From an archaeon (GTDB lineage: Archaea; Nanobdellota; Nanobdellia; Woesearchaeales; UBA9642): a stretch of 64,000 nt of DNA. This document shows positions 1,373-47,032 of this stretch, one piece after another; position 1 is the first letter of the stretch; every line of letters starts with the position of its first letter. Made by a program: the position numbers and the translations under genes. Location: the NCBI GenBank assembly GCA_020057295.1, contig JAGVGF010000001.1:64001-128000 (forward strand). The letters are read 5' to 3'. Below the pieces are notes generated by a model. The model was not told where the DNA came from and made no database searches. It saw only the letters and a program-made list of their open reading frames with translations.

Positions 1373-1632
1373 ACACACTATTTTATGATGTCTCTATTTT
1401 TTTGTTTATATTCTCTTAATACTTTATAAAAAATAACTTATTATTTCTGATTAAAAGTTTTAGCTACTATCACTCACTTTATGTTTTATGTTTGTGCTTA
1501 ACAGTATAATTTTATTATATTTTATGCTCTATATTCGAAAAATATTATTTATTAGATTTTACTAAATTTTTCATGAATTTTTTTATAAAATTTTGTTTGA
1601 AATTTTTTCCTTAATTTAGTATATTGGATTAT

Positions 1633-1760
1633 CAATATATAGTATAAACAATATATTGTATTAGCAATAAATACAAAAAATTGAAAATAATTTACTTATT
1701 TATTTTATCGTCGATAAAAATCTTAAATAACAAAATATATAAATATGTCAATATATTGTA
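1633..1760. promoter_or_regulatory. Candidate operator sites upstream of PadR gene
   Basis: caatatattgta at 1649-1660 and 1749-1760, variant caatatatagta at 1633-1644; 17-bp palindrome ttttatcg-t-cgataaaa at 1703-1719. Confidence 0.45.
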
Positions 1761-1764
1761 AATT

Positions 1765-2100
1765 GTGAAAAAACAAAAAAATAACTCAAAAAAGTTAATA
1801 CCAAAATATATTGAATTAAAGGGTTTTCTAAGTTTTTTTATACTTCATGAACTCGACGATAGGCCTTCTTCTGGCGATGAACTTGCATTAGCTATCGGTG
1901 AGCGTAGAAACACTGTTTTAACACCTGGAACAATCTATCCAGCTTTGAAGCGTTTACGTCGACAAAAACTGATATTTTATCGTAGAAATGGCAGAAAAAA
2001 AGTATATGTTTTAACTGATCTTGGTAAAAAAGAGCTTAAAGCGCTATATGTTGTTTTTGCTGATTTTTTTAGTGGATTAAAAACAAAAATAAAGCGATAA
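1765..2100 (+). CDS. PadR-family transcriptional regulator
   Basis: KGFL...IL..L, PGTIYPALKRL, Y.LT..G...L motifs. Confidence 0.9.
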   Translation: MKKQKNNSKKLIPKYIELKGFLSFFILHELDDRPSSGDELALAIGERRNTVLTPGTIYPALKRLRRQKLIFYRRNGRKKVYVLTDLGKKELKALYVVFADFFSGLKTKIKR

Positions 2101-2309
2101 ATTTTAGTTATTGATTAAATCCTTTAGTTTTTTGTTTTATTTATATTTGATTATATGTTTTAATCGAAAATTAAATATTTTGTGTTTAATTTTATGTTTT
2201 TTGATTAAATATTTTAATTAAAGATTAATATCTTTAGAATTAATTTTGTTATATTTGTGCTATTATATTTTAATCAAAAATTAAAAAATATAAGAAAAGT
2301 TATATTTAT

Positions 2310-2798
2310 TTATCTATGTTGTCTTAAATGACGTGGTGTTCCATATACTTGAGATTGTCTCATATAAGGATTAAAGTTATTATGTCTGTGTTGTCTAAAA
2401 CCTGCATTTCCTATGTTTATTCCTGCTGAAACATTGCCAAATCCGTCAGCATAAAAATATCCGCCGTCTCTGTGAATTAATCCTCTGCCTTGATAGAATG
2501 GACTTCCGCTAATGAATTCAACGTCGATCATTGGTACAGGAACGTATCTTACTATTGTTTCCTGGACTGGTTTGTCTATTGATTCTGTAGTTACTTTTGG
2601 TTGTGGTGCTGGTGTTGCTTGTATTTGTTTTGGATTACTTACATAATTGTTAATTGTAATATTAATAGGTTGAGTTACTGGTTGATTATGCGGTATAGAA
2701 TGATAATGTGGTCTACAACTAAATAGTGCAAATGCTAATAAACCTGCTCCACAAACTGCAGCTCCTGCAAAACCGTATTTTATAGCTTGATCATCCAT
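2310..2798 (-). CDS. Hypothetical N-terminally anchored Pro/Gln-rich protein
   Basis: Hydrophobic N-terminus ending in FSC, Pro-rich linker; start set at MDDQAIK. Confidence 0.55.
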   Translation of the reverse strand: MDDQAIKYGFAGAAVCGAGLLAFALFSCRPHYHSIPHNQPVTQPINITINNYVSNPKQIQATPAPQPKVTTESIDKPVQETIVRYVPVPMIDVEFISGSPFYQGRGLIHRDGGYFYADGFGNVSAGINIGNAGFRQHRHNNFNPYMRQSQVYGTPRHLRQHR

Positions 2799-3023
2799 AA
2801 TTATTCCCTCTATAAGTATATAAAGCATAACTAGTATTTAAATTTTACGATTTTATAGTGACAACACTATTTTTATTGTTTAATATGTTGTGATTAAATT
2901 ATTTAATCAAATCTAGAAATATTTATCTTGCTTTGTTAATATTTATCTGCTTAAATTATTTAGTTTTTTATTAAATTATTTATTCTTATTTTTTGTTGTT
3001 TTAACTGTTATTTTGCTATTATT

Positions 3024-3056
3024 CGAAAAATTTATATACTTAGGGTTCCCTAAGTA
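3024..3056 (+). promoter_or_regulatory. BRE/TATA promoter of recombinase overlapped by perfect 9-2-9 inverted repeat
   Basis: cgaaaaa-tttatata (3024-3038); tacttaggg-tt-ccctaagta (3037-3056); RBS aaggtga before ATG 3094. Confidence 0.7.
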
Positions 3057-3093
3057 AACAAAATACTTGTTTTATCAGTAGCAAAGGTGAGTT

Positions 3094-4323
3094 ATGGCAC
3101 GAAAATCTGTTGTAATTTCTCAAGGTATGGGCCGAAAACCAAAAGCTGCGATTTATATTAGAGTTAGTACTGCCGAACAAGCTAAAGAAGGATATAGTTT
3201 GGGGGCTCAAGAAGAATCATTAACAGGATATGTTAAAAATATGAATTATGATATTTACAAGATCTATAAAGATGAAGGAAAATCTGCTAAAGATATGAAA
3301 CATAGGCCAGCATTGCAACAATTGCTTAAAGATGCTGAAAATAAACAGTTTAATGCAGTAATAGTATATAAGCTTGATAGATTTAGTAGAAGCTTAAAAG
3401 ATTTAATCTTAACTATTGAGAAACTTAAAGACATTGGAATAGATTTTATTTCATTACAAGACAAGATAGAAACGGCAAGTGCGGCTGGTAAATTAATGTT
3501 TCACATAATTTCATCATTCGCAGAATTCGAGCGAGACATAATCAGTGAAAGAACAAAATTTGGAATGTCAGAAAAAGCACGTGAAGGCGGCACAGTAACT
3601 AAAGCAGCATATGGCTATAAAATTGTTGATGGCAATATCATATCAGATCCTGAAAAGTGTGATAAACTGAGAGAAATATTCGAGACATACCTAAATAATA
3701 ATATAAGTCTAAGTAAATTGGCAATAAAATACGATTTAACAACAAAAGGATTAATCAGTATATTAAAAAATCGTACATACATTGGAGAATTACGTTTTAA
3801 CGACATATATTCTAAAGGACAACATGATTCAATACTATCAAAAGAGTTATTCGATAGTGTACAATTGAAGCTAGATTCAACACTTTATCATAGAGAGAAT
3901 ATTAAATATAGCAATTTACTACAAAAACTTTCCAAAAAAACGTTACAAAAGGAATATATGGAAAAATTTACCTCTTTATTATCAAAAAAGATTATAAGCA
4001 TGAACGTAGTTGACATATCCGTAGATTCTGATGAAGATTTATCCAAGTTTTCAGAACCAAAAAAATTAAAATGCGCTGGACAAAAATATTTATTAGATCA
4101 AGGATTTAATAGTAAAGATATATCATTTGATAGAGTTTTTATCAATGCTGATAAAGCAGATATATGCGGTATAAACGGCAATCATAAGACTTATTTATAT
4201 CACAATACGGAAAGTTTAAATGATTTTTTAAGGTATATTTCCGAACATATCATTGTAGGTTTTTTACAAGAAAGTGAGGATAAGATAATGCTTTACACTT
4301 TTAGAAAAGAACTAGAATTCTAA
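3094..4323 (+). CDS. Large serine recombinase (resolvase + recombinase domains, C-terminal extension)
   Basis: YIRVST catalytic Ser, RPALQ, KLDRFSR, AEFERDIISERT, YGY, IL.NRTYIG, H..I.S.ELF..VQ motifs. Confidence 0.93.
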   Translation: MARKSVVISQGMGRKPKAAIYIRVSTAEQAKEGYSLGAQEESLTGYVKNMNYDIYKIYKDEGKSAKDMKHRPALQQLLKDAENKQFNAVIVYKLDRFSRSLKDLILTIEKLKDIGIDFISLQDKIETASAAGKLMFHIISSFAEFERDIISERTKFGMSEKAREGGTVTKAAYGYKIVDGNIISDPEKCDKLREIFETYLNNNISLSKLAIKYDLTTKGLISILKNRTYIGELRFNDIYSKGQHDSILSKELFDSVQLKLDSTLYHRENIKYSNLLQKLSKKTLQKEYMEKFTSLLSKKIISMNVVDISVDSDEDLSKFSEPKKLKCAGQKYLLDQGFNSKDISFDRVFINADKADICGINGNHKTYLYHNTESLNDFLRYISEHIIVGFLQESEDKIMLYTFRKELEF

Positions 4324-4991
4324 CCTTGTGGCAATAATAAGCCTAATTTGTTAAAAATAGCTTTAGGTGTTCTTTTGTTTGTACCGGACATTTTACCAAT
4401 CCATGTTTCGAGTGCATCCCTATTTTTTAAGAATTGTTGAGACATCGCCGCGCGATCTTTACATCCTTCAAGCGTCATTAACAATTCGTAATAATACTCA
4501 TATTTTATACCTAATTGTGATATATCTTCACCCACACCCTTAATTTTACGATCTTTATCATTAAGTAGTTTACCTGCTTCATCAATAACTTTTAATCCAT
4601 TAATTTGATTAGCAGTAACCAGTTTAACTATGTTATTAAGTATAGTATTTTTAGGATGTTTTTGCATATATTTTACAGTTTCTAAACGTAATTTTTCACC
4701 AGAAGACTTAAACTCTTTAACTATAGTACCAAGTACATTTTGTAGTTCATTATCAGAACCTACACTAGGAGTAACATATATCAATTCTGGTAATTCCTTA
4801 ATTTTTTCAATACCCTTATTCTTTAATTCATCCATTAAAACTGAAAATCTACCTTTAAACTTTTCATCTTTAGTTTTTGATAATGATAATTCTACATTCT
4901 TTAACATCTTAATCTTACATTCTTCTAATGTCTTAGTGCGTAAGTTATTAATATCTTTCAAAGTTTCTTTTATAGTTTTTGTGTTAGCCAT
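4320..4991 (-). CDS. Hypothetical alpha-helical protein, last gene of 4-gene operon
   Basis: ATG 4 nt after previous stop; Lys/Leu/Glu-rich, no TM. Confidence 0.65.
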   Translation of the reverse strand: MANTKTIKETLKDINNLRTKTLEECKIKMLKNVELSLSKTKDEKFKGRFSVLMDELKNKGIEKIKELPELIYVTPSVGSDNELQNVLGTIVKEFKSSGEKLRLETVKYMQKHPKNTILNNIVKLVTANQINGLKVIDEAGKLLNDKDRKIKGVGEDISQLGIKYEYYYELLMTLEGCKDRAAMSQQFLKNRDALETWIGKMSGTNKRTPKAIFNKLGLLLPQG

Positions 4992-4995
4992 TTTA

Positions 4996-6408
4996 TTATT
5001 GCCTGAACGGATTGTTTGGTAGTGGAGCATTGTTATTATTATATGCTGCTCCAAATTGTTGATAATATATCATGAATGCATTACACATAAATGCAAATCT
5101 TTGGAATGCTATATAAATTACTTCTAAGTCTTGAGCTGTCAGGTTAGGATATGTTGGATCATTAAACAAATTATTCATACCTTGATTAAAATCTGCAATA
5201 CCATTAATTAATCTATCATGCAAGTCATGTAAAGCAGTCCACATTTGAGGATCTTCAACCCTGTTTTGTACTTGTCCACGATGTAATTGTACTAATAATC
5301 TAGATAAATCAGCATATTCTGAAGCCCTGGCTTGTAAAATTGTTAATAATCTGTTTAATGCTTCAATTCTATTATTAGCAGCTTGAGGTGCATCAATAAA
5401 AAATAGTAAGTTGGCACGGACTAAAACAGTGTCAGTATTTGGTTGATAAGCAGTTATTTCTATCATGTAACCACCAGTATTGACAAGATTATTGAACGGT
5501 GCGTAATTAATTGTTTGTCCATTAACATTTCTAACTCTACCGCTATGATCTTGATTATTTAATCTAACATTATAATCAAAATTTGCGGCAAATCCTTGAC
5601 CAGCAACATTAAAACTTACAGGAATATTAGTTCTAGGAAGATGATGTGAATAAGCTTGAGGACTAGTAATAGTTAATGTGTTATTATTATTTGTACCAAC
5701 TCCTGTACCACCAAGATTTCCTTGTGGTCCAACAGGTCCAAGATTGCCTGCAGGTCCTACTTGTCCTGCCGCTCCCTGAGGTCCTTGTGGTCCGGTAGGG
5801 CCAGTTGTTGATCCAGTTCCAGCACCACCAAATAATTTAAACATTTGAATAAGTAAATATATGAATGCAGTTATAGCGGCTAAAGCTAATACTCCGGATA
5901 ATAAAGGAACATTTTGGTCTATCCATTGATATAATCTACCAAAAGGTACAACCATTAAACCGTAAATTATGAGATATGTTAACGATGCACTAACATTCTT
6001 AGCATTATCGCCAGTAAATAACCCGAGCAATAAATTATATAGTAACATGGCCAGTATTAATAAAAATACTATTAAAGCTATAGGTTCAAGTTTTCCTAGA
6101 TAGAAACTAGTATATGTTTCAAGCATAACCATTGAAAATGTTAATGCTAAAGCTACAGCAACGGCAATAGTTTTTGCCTCTTTTTTATTATTTGCAAAAG
6201 CCTTTAAGAATGCAATTTGTCCTATACTTAAGAATAGTAAGAAATATATTATTGCATCAATAAATTCATAAAATCGCATGTAAAATCCTGCTATATCTAA
6301 TCCACTAAATGGATGAAGAATAGAAATTAGATCAAAAGTTAAAGCGTACGCAGAACTACTTAAGATCAAAATCGAAAATATATATAATGATAACTTGCGA
6401 ATATTCAT
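4996..6408 (-). CDS. Signal peptide + 5-TM membrane protein with collagen-like repeat, Ig-like and helical domains
   Basis: SSSAYA cleavage motif, five hydrophobic segments, 12 Gly-X-Y triplets, LTITSP...YMIEITAY Ig-like strand pattern. Confidence 0.75.
   Translation of the reverse strand: MNIRKLSLYIFSILILSSSAYALTFDLISILHPFSGLDIAGFYMRFYEFIDAIIYFLLFLSIGQIAFLKAFANNKKEAKTIAVAVALALTFSMVMLETYTSFYLGKLEPIALIVFLLILAMLLYNLLLGLFTGDNAKNVSASLTYLIIYGLMVVPFGRLYQWIDQNVPLLSGVLALAAITAFIYLLIQMFKLFGGAGTGSTTGPTGPQGPQGAAGQVGPAGNLGPVGPQGNLGGTGVGTNNNNTLTITSPQAYSHHLPRTNIPVSFNVAGQGFAANFDYNVRLNNQDHSGRVRNVNGQTINYAPFNNLVNTGGYMIEITAYQPNTDTVLVRANLLFFIDAPQAANNRIEALNRLLTILQARASEYADLSRLLVQLHRGQVQNRVEDPQMWTALHDLHDRLINGIADFNQGMNNLFNDPTYPNLTAQDLEVIYIAFQRFAFMCNAFMIYYQQFGAAYNNNNAPLPNNPFRQ
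5695..5802 (-). repeat. Collagen-like (Gly-X-Y)12 coding repeat
   Basis: GPT GPQ GPQ GAA GQV GPA GNL GPV GPQ GNL GGT GVG; locally GC-rich. Confidence 0.85.
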
Positions 6409-6417
6409 ATTACTTGT

Positions 6418-8373
6418 TTATGGTTTCTTTTTACGAGCGTTTTTTATGACTAATTCTTGACGTTTCTGTATAGCATTAACTAAATCACTAGCAAATTTAG
6501 TTAATAGTTTTTGGTTGTTTTGATTGATTTTAGTAATCTTAGTTTTTCTATCAACTGTGCTAAAATTCTTGATAAATTTATTAGCAGCTTTTATGAATTC
6601 CAATAATTCAATTCTTGTCTTATTAGTTTTCTTTGGTATTTGTGTAATAATTATACTTTCTTCCGCACCTACTGCAGCAACAAATGGATTAAGATTTATC
6701 GTTGCAGGATCAATGTTAGGATCCATAATAAGCTTTTTAGCTACATTGTTCATTAAATTATTAGCTACTTCGTCAAACAATTTATCTTCAGCAGCATACA
6801 ATTTGAATATTTCATCTTCTATTTTATCTATGAATGCTGGATACTTCTTAACTAAATCTGTTTCCGTTGTTAATAACTCTTTAACTCTTTCGCGTTTTCT
6901 AGTTAGCATTATAGCATTACTAGTTTCGATAGCTACTATCTCTTGAGTTCTACCTCTAATTTTTTTCAGATATTTTTCCACTTCGGATAATGTCTGATCT
7001 CTAATAAGAGAGAATTTTATAGGATTTATAGTTTTTTTTGCGACATCAACCATACTGATGTTTGTTAATGGATCAGTAGTTAGTAGATTTACAATTTTAT
7101 TGATGTCTTTAAGATTTTCATTATCAACATCTTGCATACGTTTAGTTTGGTCTATTATAGTTTTCTCGCTATCCTTTACAATAATATCTTCCTGTAATTC
7201 TAAGTTAACTTCTTTATTTAAATTGTTAAAATCTGCTAGCAATGTAGGATATATTGGTGTACCCTTAAGTTCATCTATATCCTCTTGAATATCTTTTATT
7301 ATTGCGTTATTTTCATTGAATAATTTTTCAACATCTTCTTTGAATTCTTTATCTATTGTAGATAGCGTAGTATCGGTATCTTTTTTACATTTCTCAATAG
7401 ATTTTTGTAAATTTAGAACTGTATCTTTTAATTTAGTTGTATAATTTCGTAATGTGTCAGAATAAGTTTGTAATTGTGACTGATATTGTGCATATGCTGG
7501 ATTAGATGTGTTATTATGTATTTGTTGAATTGCCTTCTGTAACTTCCAAGCGTTTTGCAATGAAATTTCTAGTTGTTGTAATAGTTTAACTTGTTCATCT
7601 CGGCTTAATTTATCATTACTCTCAAATCTTTCTTCTAAATTTTCCAAGTTCTGAATTTTACCTTCTAGCTGTTGCACATCATAATCTAAACTGTTAACTT
7701 TGTTTGCAAACTTTTGTTCTTTCTCTAATTGTTTTCTTCTACGTTTCTCTTCGCTACGTTCATTATTTTCTGCTCTTCCTAATTGTGTACTTCCGCTCCT
7801 GAAACCTTTGAATATTGCGCCTATGCCTATTATTAGTCCGATTAGCGCGATGATGAAACATGCATTCCATATTCCAGAAAGGAGTGATTGACTTTCAATG
7901 TATTCTTTTAATTTTGGAGCCATCCAAGTCACAAGTATATACATTGTAATAAATCCTACTGAGAATGCTGCAAGTTTACTTCCACCAAGATTTTTAGTCC
8001 ACGTATATACGCCAATACCGAATATTAAGAAGAATATTAATGCTGCAAATGGTGCTAACATTCCAAGATTGAATCCTGATTGTCTCTCAAATATTGCCAT
8101 TCCAATACCGAGTATTACTCCGATGATTATAGGTATGGTCTTATGTTCTTTGAATTTTTCACCAAGTGCACTATTGGCTACACCGATAAATAGTATAAAA
8201 TATAATACTGCATCAATGAATGGTGCATATCTAAAATATGTTTGAGCAATATCTACATTTTTAGCTATAGGTTCGAGAATTTTATCTAATAAATTTGTTG
8301 CACCGAAAACGAGAGGTATAGAGAATAATACTATTAGTGCCATTATTGGCAGTACACGAAAATTTTTACGCAT
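6418..8373 (-). CDS. Signal peptide + 5-TM membrane protein with long coiled-coil C-terminus; paralog of 4996-6408
   Basis: DIAQTYFRYAPFIDAVLYFILF vs DIAGFYMRFYEFIDAIIYFLLF; FNLGMLAP vs FYLGKLEP; LLSG in both; RBS gaggtgga. Confidence 0.78.
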   Translation of the reverse strand: MRKNFRVLPIMALIVLFSIPLVFGATNLLDKILEPIAKNVDIAQTYFRYAPFIDAVLYFILFIGVANSALGEKFKEHKTIPIIIGVILGIGMAIFERQSGFNLGMLAPFAALIFFLIFGIGVYTWTKNLGGSKLAAFSVGFITMYILVTWMAPKLKEYIESQSLLSGIWNACFIIALIGLIIGIGAIFKGFRSGSTQLGRAENNERSEEKRRRKQLEKEQKFANKVNSLDYDVQQLEGKIQNLENLEERFESNDKLSRDEQVKLLQQLEISLQNAWKLQKAIQQIHNNTSNPAYAQYQSQLQTYSDTLRNYTTKLKDTVLNLQKSIEKCKKDTDTTLSTIDKEFKEDVEKLFNENNAIIKDIQEDIDELKGTPIYPTLLADFNNLNKEVNLELQEDIIVKDSEKTIIDQTKRMQDVDNENLKDINKIVNLLTTDPLTNISMVDVAKKTINPIKFSLIRDQTLSEVEKYLKKIRGRTQEIVAIETSNAIMLTRKRERVKELLTTETDLVKKYPAFIDKIEDEIFKLYAAEDKLFDEVANNLMNNVAKKLIMDPNIDPATINLNPFVAAVGAEESIIITQIPKKTNKTRIELLEFIKAANKFIKNFSTVDRKTKITKINQNNQKLLTKFASDLVNAIQKRQELVIKNARKKKP

Positions 8374-8419
8374 TCAACTCCACCTCGACATTTCAATCTA
8401 TTTTTAAAACTTAAAAAAA

Positions 8420-8839
8420 TTATTTAACAATTGCTGGACATCCATTCATTGGTAATGTTTTAATAAATGGTATTGAACATAATGCCATCTCCCAAGCGAA
8501 TGGTGCAATCATTATTAGTACTGCGATAGTTAATGTATGTGGTAACTTTTCGCCAACTCTGCCTGCTACAGCTGCAGCTGCACTAATTTTAATGGCAGCG
8601 ATTATACCAATTAATACTCTTATTCCTATAGTAATCCAAATACTCGGAGTCCACTTGAATAAGCTAGTGACGTAACCGATGTTCATACTGATAAAAATAA
8701 ATACAAACATGATAGGAATTGCGTGTAGTGCATGTCCTAACGGATGCATTCCAGCTTCATCTTGATGAACAAATATTATTTCAAGAATTGCTAGTATTAA
8801 GCCTATAATTATAACTGGTATTATAACAATATCTGCCAT
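8420..8839 (-). CDS. Small 4-TM membrane protein with His/acidic motif
   Basis: LEIIFVHQDE...GHALHA...KLPH; RBS ggtga; TATA upstream. Confidence 0.75.
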   Translation of the reverse strand: MADIVIIPVIIIGLILAILEIIFVHQDEAGMHPLGHALHAIPIMFVFIFISMNIGYVTSLFKWTPSIWITIGIRVLIGIIAAIKISAAAAVAGRVGEKLPHTLTIAVLIMIAPFAWEMALCSIPFIKTLPMNGCPAIVK

Positions 8840-8925
8840 ACGTAATCACCCATTAGTTTTTTAATAAAATCTAGAGTGAGATATATATAAAGCTTTCTAT
8901 TTTTGTGCGAGAAATGTTATATAAT

Positions 8926-9180
8926 TTATTCTATTTTTACTTTCTGACCGATAGATTGTCCAGGCATTGCTTGAGTAAAGACTGCTCTTAACGCTCCACT
9001 ATTACCGTGTATAGCATTAATTTTACCAACAATATCTTTTTTACCTGTATTGAATATTACTTTCTTACCAACAAGTTTACTTGCCTTATCCTTAGAATCT
9101 ATTTCAGCTACTTTAACAACTAAATGATTATTAGTCTGACCAGTGCTGTTTCGACGATAGTTAACGATTGTTCCTTCCAT
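8926..9180 (-). CDS. rpl35ae: 50S ribosomal protein L35Ae (eL33)
   Basis: G.IVNYRR, L.GKKV, GKI...HGNSG..RA.F, PGQ.IG motifs. Confidence 0.93.
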   Translation of the reverse strand: MEGTIVNYRRNSTGQTNNHLVVKVAEIDSKDKASKLVGKKVIFNTGKKDIVGKINAIHGNSGALRAVFTQAMPGQSIGQKVKIE

Positions 9181-9337
9181 ACCTTAAAGGAGAAAAGGTT
9201 AATTTAAAAATGTTTCGTATGACGAAACAGTTTTGAACAACGCGAAAAAAGGTTATGATTGAAAAGAAAATAATACATCGTCACTTTCAAGTAGTATAAA
9301 ACCAAAAATTTATAAACGCACTATTCTTCGTAAAATT

Positions 9338-10240
9338 ATGATTAATATATTAATCACATCTGAAAAGAAAGGTTCAAATCCTGGTGGAAGATGTAAAGTA
9401 CCCTTTAGAGGACAAACTTTAGATTTTTATTTAAAGTATTGCAATGGTTCTCAACTTCCAAAATATCATCCGTTTAAGCCTTACAATCAGCCAGTATATG
9501 AGGCAATTACATTAGCTATAGCAAAATATTTCGGACTTGAAGTGCCAAGATATTTTTTATTAATTAACAATAATCATAGTTCTGTATCATTCACATATGC
9601 TGATACATCGCTAAAAAAGAAACCTCTAGATCCAACAAAAAAATCTTATTTACTCTCAGAATTAGCTCAGTTACCAAAATGTGTAGATACTGGTCTAATG
9701 CTTAAAGAGATGGCTCAAGAAAAAGTTTATAGAGACTTGCTAATGATTGGTGATGTATCGAACAAGAACCAAAATTATACACTTCTAGATCCTGATAATT
9801 ATCAATTTACACATTCTTCCACTACACCATACATATATTATATTGATTTAGGATGTAGTTTTGTAGATGCCCATGAAGGATTCATCGGTCAACGTCACGC
9901 AGTTTCTAGATTGATAAGTATTGATGAATTTGGATTAACATCGTCTGCAAGAAAAGAAATTAATCACGCCAGTGATTATCTAGATAAATATTATCTACGG
10001 ACAACACATAAAGATTCAAATAAAGTACATACATTAAAATTATCTGCTATTCCAAAAATGATTGGTGATTTACCCTTGCCGCTGTTTCAAAACGGTATTG
10101 CCACCCCAAATGTATTATTATCACCTCTTGAATTAAAACTTATAGAAGGACTTTTAACTTTAAATATGGCAGAAGTTGTACATGATTATGTAAAAAATCA
10201 CAAAACAGACGCAATATCTCTTGTTTCTCCACATAGTTAA
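9338..10240 (+). CDS. HipA/PI3-4K-like atypical kinase
   Basis: KKGSNPGG loop, YLK, YE....IA..FGL.VP, D..N..NY, YIDLG; BRE/TATA at about 9304-9316. Confidence 0.6.
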   Translation: MINILITSEKKGSNPGGRCKVPFRGQTLDFYLKYCNGSQLPKYHPFKPYNQPVYEAITLAIAKYFGLEVPRYFLLINNNHSSVSFTYADTSLKKKPLDPTKKSYLLSELAQLPKCVDTGLMLKEMAQEKVYRDLLMIGDVSNKNQNYTLLDPDNYQFTHSSTTPYIYYIDLGCSFVDAHEGFIGQRHAVSRLISIDEFGLTSSARKEINHASDYLDKYYLRTTHKDSNKVHTLKLSAIPKMIGDLPLPLFQNGIATPNVLLSPLELKLIEGLLTLNMAEVVHDYVKNHKTDAISLVSPHS

Positions 10241-46805: not shown

Positions 46806-47032
46806 ATCAACAAACTAAGTAAACTTATATAAATAGTTTACTAAAATATTAGAATAAAGCGCTTTATGAAAAATATTATAAAATTTTAAAATTTAACTGA
46901 AAAATACACAAACTTTATAAATAATGAAAGCATTTTTTTATAAATCTAACTGAAATGCGGGGGTATTTTTAGTTGATTAAAACATTTAATCTGTAATCAT
47001 ACTTTAGCTTACGCTTTACGGGGGTCATTAGA

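Follow-up and report, generated by a model that had tools for sequence, protein, structure and literature searches.

What kind of membrane protein locus lies between positions 4320 and 8839 of a 64,000-nucleotide stretch (the window) of contig JAGVGF010000001.1, from an archaeon of the order Woesearchaeales, and what might its products do? Most membrane proteins in the small genomes of DPANN archaea lack annotation, and to our knowledge little has been learnt of how these organisms build their envelopes and deal with their hosts. The locus comprises four open reading frames (ORFs), here called A139, B651, C470 and D223, all on the minus strand, in AT-rich surroundings (28-35% G+C) and coming after the gene for ribosomal protein L35Ae (8926-9180), which marks the source as archaeal. 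An earlier note on this DNA, made from the sequence alone, had proposed that they form an undescribed four-gene membrane complex in which a shared anchor carries swappable C-terminal payloads, for host contact, as a pore or injection device, or as a cell-shape scaffold. Much of what it described stands: the ORF map confirms co-oriented genes with gaps of 46, 9 and 4 nucleotides (nt), a DPANN origin is borne out by the Woesearchaeota-type names of database relatives (the closest relatives of B651 and C470 carry the source name 'Candidatus Woesearchaeota archaeon'), and none of the four products matches a nameable family above cut-off in Pfam, NCBIfam, PHROGs or PADLOC. The four-gene unit itself does not stand. 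The constant core is the tandem pair B651 and C470, two paralogs sharing an N-terminal module with five transmembrane (TM) helices.

The finding on which this report turns is that shared module. B651 (6418..8373, 651 residues), the first protein of the pair, and C470 (4996..6408, 470 residues), the second, are paralogs: BLASTP aligns their N-terminal ~195 residues at 29% identity (63.5 bits, E 6e-15). Both begin with a basic N-terminus and a hydrophobic signal-like segment ending in small residues (residues 1-24 of B651, from its hydrophobic profile), followed by five hydrophobic helices. By paralogy and alignment the 5-TM module of B651 runs to about residue 195 (7789-8373), and that of C470 covers residues 1-195 (5824-6408). 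An AlphaFold model of C470 gives pLDDT ~90 to residues 47-194, with helices at 47-70, 75-100, 110-130, 136-153 and 168-194. BLASTP, hydrophobicity and this model together confirm the signal peptide plus 5-TM module that the earlier note had seen in both paralogs, and the motifs it had picked out, FIDA..Y and F.LG.L.P, are conserved columns in an alignment of 27 module sequences. Two positions of that alignment, D54 and F62, never vary and two others, Y46 and L88, hardly do; the TM1 aspartate, D54, is equally constant in 91 database members. For C470 the public gene call (P0006, 427 residues) starts 43 codons downstream of the ATG used here (window 6280-6408) and omits both the signal-like segment and the conserved pre-TM1 motif common to the paralogs.

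The source genome holds only these two copies, and the family around them is large. A profile of the module, searched against 1.84 billion cluster representatives (clusters at 50% identity), matched 1302 at E<=1e-3, 860 at E<=1e-10 and 292 at E<=1e-30. In all 150 matches listed the module begins within the first 30 residues, in proteins of 169-1416 residues. It was found in nine of the 12 other genomes of the genus (single-protein query), in 59 of 201 genomes of the order (profile search; one of the 59 is a genome flagged unpublished) and in 76 of 301 genomes of a phylum sample where, among the matches listed, all belong to the same order or class; as far as searched, the family appears confined to one archaeal class. 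No consistent Pfam match was obtained with 27, 63 or 91 members, and the 13 different families hit by the 27 module segments, one member each, amount to noise. Profile searches of the PDB returned no match within the module, the ESM Atlas returned unnamed archaeal clusters only, and no publication on the family was found, judged by titles and abstracts. A match of C470 to the manganese efflux family MntP (PF02659) was rejected, at 17.9 bits against a cut-off of 24.4 and with only one of the 27 members matching at E<=0.1. At the level of sequence and profile, then, the module is an unnamed family, as the earlier note had suspected, and a large one; its apparent newness reflects failed membership tests rather than a demonstrated function.

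Tandem arrangement is a property of the family and not only of this locus. Two or three co-oriented module copies occur in 23 of 38 module loci, 16 of the 23 with gaps of at most 72 nt or overlaps, and some of the single-copy loci stop at a contig edge. In a tree of the modules, built from rows with 140 or more match columns, one family of loci (f1) has its first and its second genes in two old clades, and elsewhere the copies pair by genome; the multi-copy state therefore arose repeatedly. Two observations on relatives may be recorded here. Five loci (L066, L067, L068, L069 and L076, from genomes G120, G203, G113, G210 and G083) form a divergent subgroup that matches the profile through TM4 only; L068 and L069 carry an insert of 80-230 residues after TM4 and then a further, last TM helix, and one insert of the subgroup has an OmpA-like match just below threshold (26.6 bits against 27.2). 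Module or A139 homologs in three relatives (G181:C2:45707-46096, G106:C37:5092-5520, and G074:C22 and C87) contain one or two in-frame TAA codons, and could be pseudogenes, sequencing errors or cases of recoding.

What follows the module is far less constant. Tails range from 3 to 1028 residues after TM5 across 63 locus proteins, 75 of 139 database tails longer than 60 residues hold at least 38% E/K/R/D/Q, and beyond position 190 a tail-inclusive family profile matches only coiled-coil proteins (NDC80, dynactin, vimentin, SMC), so that the tails are, by prediction, mostly coiled coil. The 456-residue tail of B651 (6418-7788) is of this kind: it is charged and K/E/L/N-rich, with 11 Pro and 5 Gly, and in 8.8% of its 35-residue windows the heptad periodicity is above the 99th percentile of shuffles, which agrees with the coiled coil or helix of about 450 residues predicted in the earlier note. 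C470 is built differently, and here too the earlier description (collagen, immunoglobulin (Ig)-like domain, helical bundle) is upheld. Twelve uninterrupted G-X-Y triplets, identified by regular expression, occupy residues 203-238 (5695..5802); they score 14.1 bits against a cut-off of 27.2 for Pfam Collagen (PF01391) because the run is short, show a 27/36-nt DNA periodicity (repeat family D2) and have low pLDDT in the monomer model. Behind them the model places a beta-sandwich at residues 237-338 (5395..5700) and a three-helix bundle at 342-457 (5038..5385), with Foldseek and VIA matches to Ig-like and fn3 domains for the former and to syntaxin-Habc and spectrin-like folds for the latter. These two domains take up the match lists of the full 470-residue model, in which the module is barely represented; a BFVD structure search gave generic Ig-like matches only.

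Are these tails swappable payloads? At the level of the family they are, given their range of lengths and domains; within the genus they are not, the B and C tails each being orthologous. B-type tails are homologous across the genus (E 1e-10 to 1e-109), and among aligned C470 orthologs the bundle is kept in four of four and the sandwich in three of four. Comparison of the B tail with the C bundle gave an hhalign probability of 0.15%. Collagen after TM5 marks the clade of f1 second genes, where it is present in eight of nine proteins, and is seen in 10 of 151 database members. Rarer tails include a papain-family protease with its Cys, His and Asn motifs in place (one of 63 and one of 91 members scanned), fn3 (E 1.8e-15), CarboxypepD_reg (four of the 91), PEGA, SpaA and others, the 91 being those of 152 members that had low tail charge and fitted within a residue limit. 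Tails are also poor in cysteine (0.32%, against 0.96% in all locus ORFs), a composition that fits exported proteins or coiled coils alike.

Does the pair belong to a larger fixed unit? A139 (8420..8839, 139 residues), the gene upstream, is a conserved protein of a separate family. It has four hydrophobic segments and an AlphaFold model of four long helices (pLDDT 82.9), and E20, H25, D27, E28, H36, H39, R74, K84, E97, K98 and H101 are invariant in 10 of 10 aligned relatives, so the description of a four-helix membrane protein with a His motif was accurate. Mean column identity in the family is 71%, and 32 of the 201 genomes of the order have a member. Foldseek against the PDB found nothing (best E 4.2), and the ESM Atlas gave unnamed archaeal clusters only. 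DUF7942, itself of no known function, matches weakly over ~75 residues in six of 10 family members (best E 0.015), A139 scoring 13.8 bits against a gathering threshold of 26.7. Small multidrug resistance (SMR) proteins are likewise EmrE-like four-TM proteins, with a Glu in TM1; assignment of A139 to them was rejected for want of a match to the SMR model.

It might be supposed that all four genes encode one obligate complex, and the same strand, the short gaps and the position of A139 speak for it: in all 10 f1 loci that reach that far, the first module gene has A139 as its immediate upstream neighbour, the gene order TctA - L35Ae - A139 - B - C is kept in f1 across the genus, and in a second family of loci A139 adjoins the pair divergently. 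Across the order, however, the two families meet no more often than by chance. The earlier note had pointed to co-occurrence of the module with the 139-aa gene as a check on its proposal, and with A139 in 32 and the module in 59 of the 201 genomes we observed 10 genomes with both, against 9.4 expected if they were independent (an expectation that takes the same 201 genomes for both families, from counts that ignore kinship). In only five of those 10 are the genes adjacent (three in f1, two in the second family); in one they are 67 kb apart and in four they lie on different contigs. Seventeen of 27 A139 loci had no module gene in an automatic gene pick, in which the A139 genes of L028 and L052, both module loci, were masked as well, and A139 loci elsewhere often retain L35Ae or TctA without one.

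Putative transcription signals also speak against an obligate unit. A BRE/TATA-like box, AAAGCTTTATATATATC (8880..8896, minus strand), precedes A139 as a putative promoter, an equivalent is present in all 10 f1 loci compared, and a GGTGAT Shine-Dalgarno-like site lies nearer the A139 start. In the A139-B651 spacer (8374..8419) a T7 tract (8413-8419) directly follows the A139 stop, ahead of a TATA-like TTTTAAAAATAG (8398-8409) and of GAGGTGGAG (8378-8386). The corresponding spacer measures 81-207 nt, with T-tracts and a TTTATATA box, in five of 10 f1 loci and 6-11 nt in three. From these elements A139 would have its own conserved promoter, with terminator-like T-tracts after it. A complex prediction with the B module, the C module and A139, run without controls, returned a score of 0.00 and a mark of 0.32, figures that speak neither for nor against an assembly. 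With D223 an orphan besides, and the gene in its position different in every genome, we consider an obligate four-gene complex very improbable; A139 is better seen as a conserved neighbour, probably with a metal- or ion-related function, than as a constant subunit.

D223 (4320..4991; 223 residues from ATG, with a longer TTG frame extending to 5054) occupies what appears to be a variable slot downstream of the pair. It is K/L/E-rich and has no hydrophobic segment, in keeping with the soluble protein reported earlier. It has no Pfam or NCBIfam match at E<=0.1 and none in PHROGs or PADLOC; phmmer and jackhmmer comparisons with 14 other downstream or intervening proteins of 180-360 residues and with all locus ORFs found nothing, and no homolog turned up in a collection of 5.8 billion proteins, in a search whose word index limits its sensitivity. 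A role as a substrate of a type VII secretion system (T7SS) was rejected, since no WXG100 or LXG model matched at E<=0.1. The slot contains, depending on the genome, a 567-residue papain protein, a 480-residue protein, a 934-residue Ig-like protein, a 1086-residue CarboxypepD_reg protein, or nothing. The papain slot protein of a genome of the same genus is 46% identical over 240 residues (E 7e-68) to the papain tail fused to a module elsewhere, a second slot protein has Ig-like stretches in common with tails (E 1e-6 to 1e-8), and in three loci the second module gene and the slot gene share a 4-nt start/stop overlap. This split and fused papain, the Ig-like likeness and the overlaps link the slot proteins functionally to the tails. 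Twenty of 24 downstream or intervening proteins lack any hydrophobic start. In the sister genus, a soluble gene of ~205 residues and of no family lies between the first and second module genes (L026 6529-7155, L027 7872-8486).

On which side of the membrane do the tails lie? Over 63 members, lysine plus arginine (K+R) amount to 0.251 per residue in the N-terminus and loops 1-2 and 3-4, and to 0.069 in the pre-TM1 region and loops 2-3 and 4-5. This 3.6-fold bias between alternate loops predicts a signal, cleaved or uncleaved, followed by five spans with the N-terminus outside and the tail inside. In the subgroup with an insert, the last TM helix leads into RRKK-type clusters and from there into a helical tail, charges that would be consistent with loop 4-5 outside and the tail inside. 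By the positive-inside rule we consider cytoplasmic tails probable, if well short of certain. The opposite placement would put the tails outside the cell, as adhesins or surface fibrils held by a polytopic anchor and serving to build the envelope or to touch a host; host contact is the first of the roles that the earlier note had named. Part of the evidence does favour this and weighs against a cytoplasmic placement. Collagen, fn3, CarboxypepD_reg, PEGA, SpaA, Ig-like and papain domains, with Pro/Thr-rich linkers, occur in some tails and slot proteins, and domains of these types are typical of extracellular proteins and at odds with the cytoplasm. The tails diverge very fast and their low cysteine content suits export as well as coiled coils. 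In the 30 residues that follow TM5 the charge bias is only moderate, at 0.145 K+R per residue, and about 10 of the 63 members are net acidic there. An external tail is nevertheless hard to reconcile with the count of TM helices, which behind the signal-like segment is odd (five), with the alternate-loop bias and with the RRKK clusters; moreover, partner proteins with the same domains have neither signal peptide nor TM helix, most tails are highly charged coiled coils beginning with K/R, and a further hydrophobic segment within the tail is found in only five of 190 pooled proteins. Host contact or injection through the payloads is thereby disfavoured, and we regard surface fibrils as unlikely, though as the most serious of the alternatives.

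The predicted layout recalls several known systems without a sequence match above cut-off to any of them. YidC/Oxa1/Alb3 proteins have a cleaved signal, a short outer amphipathic stretch, five TM helices in an N-out/C-in orientation and a cytoplasmic helical C-tail, and the module proteins resemble them in layout, in particular Gram-positive YidC and Oxa1 with its C-terminal helical tail. However, the 60KD_IMP/YidC models match neither B651 nor C470 nor the sets of 27, 63 and 91 members. In YidC a coiled-coil hairpin on the cytoplasmic side joins TM1 to TM2, and TM1 has a conserved Arg; loop 1-2 of the module has ~8-11 residues (mean 10.6 over 63 members) and no such hairpin, its TM1 has the invariant D54 and no invariant Arg was found. 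As to the five-helix fold with a hydrophilic groove of these insertases, the structure matches of the full C470 model reflect its Ig-like and bundle domains and hardly the module. Tails of up to 1000 residues and tandem paralogs set the family further apart. Membrane-anchored scaffolds such as EzrA and the N-terminus of RNase Y, which have a single TM helix and known partners, also place a long cytoplasmic coiled coil behind an N-terminal anchor, a likeness that holds if the predicted topology is right; unlike them, the module proteins have a conserved 5-TM anchor with invariant residues of its own, and show no detectable homology.

Two further comparisons concern the tails. Bacterial collagen-like surface proteins (Scl1/Scl2, Lcl, BclA) share with C470 a GXY stalk and a globular head, but the Scl/Lcl models of NCBIfam (NF038330, NF038329, NF046116) align to the GXY run only (15.6-19.1 bits against cut-offs of 325-500), C470 has an N-terminal 5-TM anchor in place of the C-terminal LPXTG of Scl and no C-terminal hydrophobic anchor, and its stalk is predicted to be cytoplasmic. 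In polymorphic toxin and modular effector loci (LXG-T7SS, Rhs, CDI), a conserved N-terminal module precedes a variable C-terminus and variable small downstream genes. Module loci resemble them in all three respects and differ in that most tails are structural coiled coils, papain is the only enzyme seen, B651 and C470 contain no recognised toxin domain, and no known trafficking domain or secretion genes were found. PADLOC gave nothing above cut-off for the proteins of the locus, with one weak match to B651 (E 0.0075).

What, then, might the pair do? We propose, at slightly less than an even chance, that the module proteins are oligomeric membrane anchors that tether rods and partner proteins beneath the membrane. 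Each member of the family begins with a signal-like segment and a 5-TM anchor, and the tail behind them varies: most often it is a long coiled coil, one clade has a triple-helical collagen stalk together with a three-helix bundle and, optionally, an Ig-like domain, and now and then the tail carries an enzyme or domains of the beta-sandwich type. Collagen implies trimers and the tandem paralogs suggest mixed assemblies, in which the modules would oligomerise and keep rods of coiled coil or collagen, with their heads, on the inner side of the membrane. Soluble partners encoded in the slot (D223 here, a papain-like protease in a relative) may dock there, and the three-helix bundle of C470 is a candidate docking site. 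A cell-shape or membrane scaffold role, one of those suggested earlier, is possible. Besides the outside-type domains and the moderate charge bias already discussed, two points weigh against this proposal: D223 is without relatives, so its link to C470 consists of position and a 4-nt gap only, and we infer both oligomerisation and partner binding.

The same module features could be read as those of an oligomeric channel or export device, with the tails or the signal-less slot proteins as regulators or cargo. The invariant TM1 Asp would suit such a device, as would the acidic and aromatic residues conserved on what is predicted to be the outer face, the trimer-forming collagen beside TM5, and signal-less neighbours with papain, Ig-like and CarboxypepD_reg domains. 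Against it, the searches run showed no likeness to transporters, secretion systems or pores of any family, neither an ATPase nor further machinery is kept nearby (the recurrent neighbours are L35Ae, TctA, PAC2 and XerA-like genes), and cargo fused to its own channel is hard to square with export. We judge a channel improbable, and give as little credence to its boldest version, in which the modules would form a DPANN-specific oligomeric gate taking signal-less proteins and extracellular-type tails to the surface or the host cell. If true, that gate would amount to new archaeal machinery for export or for contact with a host, and would account for the outside-type domains on the predicted inner side.

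One neighbour calls for separate comment. A large serine recombinase gene (3094..4323, plus strand; Pfam Resolvase 3.5e-43, Recombinase 1.6e-5) is convergent with D223 and overlaps it by 4 nt; we treat it as context only. Five genomes of the genus (window 3094-4323; L022 10824-12204; L023 2902-4523; L024 10254-11542; L028 10845-11978) have it at this position, downstream of the module pair and convergent with it; it is split into two ORFs (~260 and ~173 residues) in three of the five, and the variable slot separates it from the second module gene. The locus could on this account be cargo of a mobile element or provirus, its collagen/Ig tail a virus fibre, a view to which the abutting recombinase, the variability of the slot beside it and PHROG tail-fibre matches of C470 lend some colour. 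We find it far-fetched. The PHROG matches span the GXY run only, and we put them, like the spanin matches, down to collagen or coiled-coil composition; BFVD offered nothing beyond generic Ig-like folds; the gene order from TctA to C is kept across the genus, with L35Ae near module genes in 13 of 38 loci; and neither virus genes, such as those for a capsid or terminase, nor flanking repeats in excess of chance were seen. Inversion of payloads by the recombinase, as in a shufflon, was also rejected: the inverted repeats of 1500-9400 are of the short, 70-95% matched kind that AT-rich DNA usually contains, and no tail is enclosed by any of them.

Some features of the surroundings deserve mention in their own right. 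A 21-nt palindromic motif of the type TTGATTAAAT-A-TTTTAATCAA occurs at 2147-2167, 2201-2221 and 2890-2910 of the window and again at 46973-46993, with five strand matches against 0.13 expected. The first three sites flank an orphan membrane-anchored gene (2310-2828) just upstream of the serine recombinase gene, and may serve the recombinase for crossover at either end of an invertible segment, or a regulator as operators. That gene encodes a 172-residue N-terminally anchored protein and the gene at 9338-10240 a 300-residue soluble one, neither with a Pfam, NCBIfam, PHROG or PADLOC match. Near module genes elsewhere we noted a PAC2-family gene (E 8.6e-43) in eight of 38 loci (L029 13652-14365 and seven others) and a XerA-like tyrosine recombinase (E 6.4e-43) in six (L026 3120-3944 and five others), probably a conserved chromosomal neighbourhood, as with L35Ae and TctA.

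The wider significance of these findings lies in a family of membrane proteins that is unnamed and yet present in about a quarter to a third of the sampled genomes of the order and class. A model of the N-terminal module gives a handle for annotating its members, and the family is a target for topology mapping and cryo-electron tomography. Either collagen, Ig-like and papain domains work under an archaeal membrane, or proteins without signals reach the surface by an unknown route, and both would be new.

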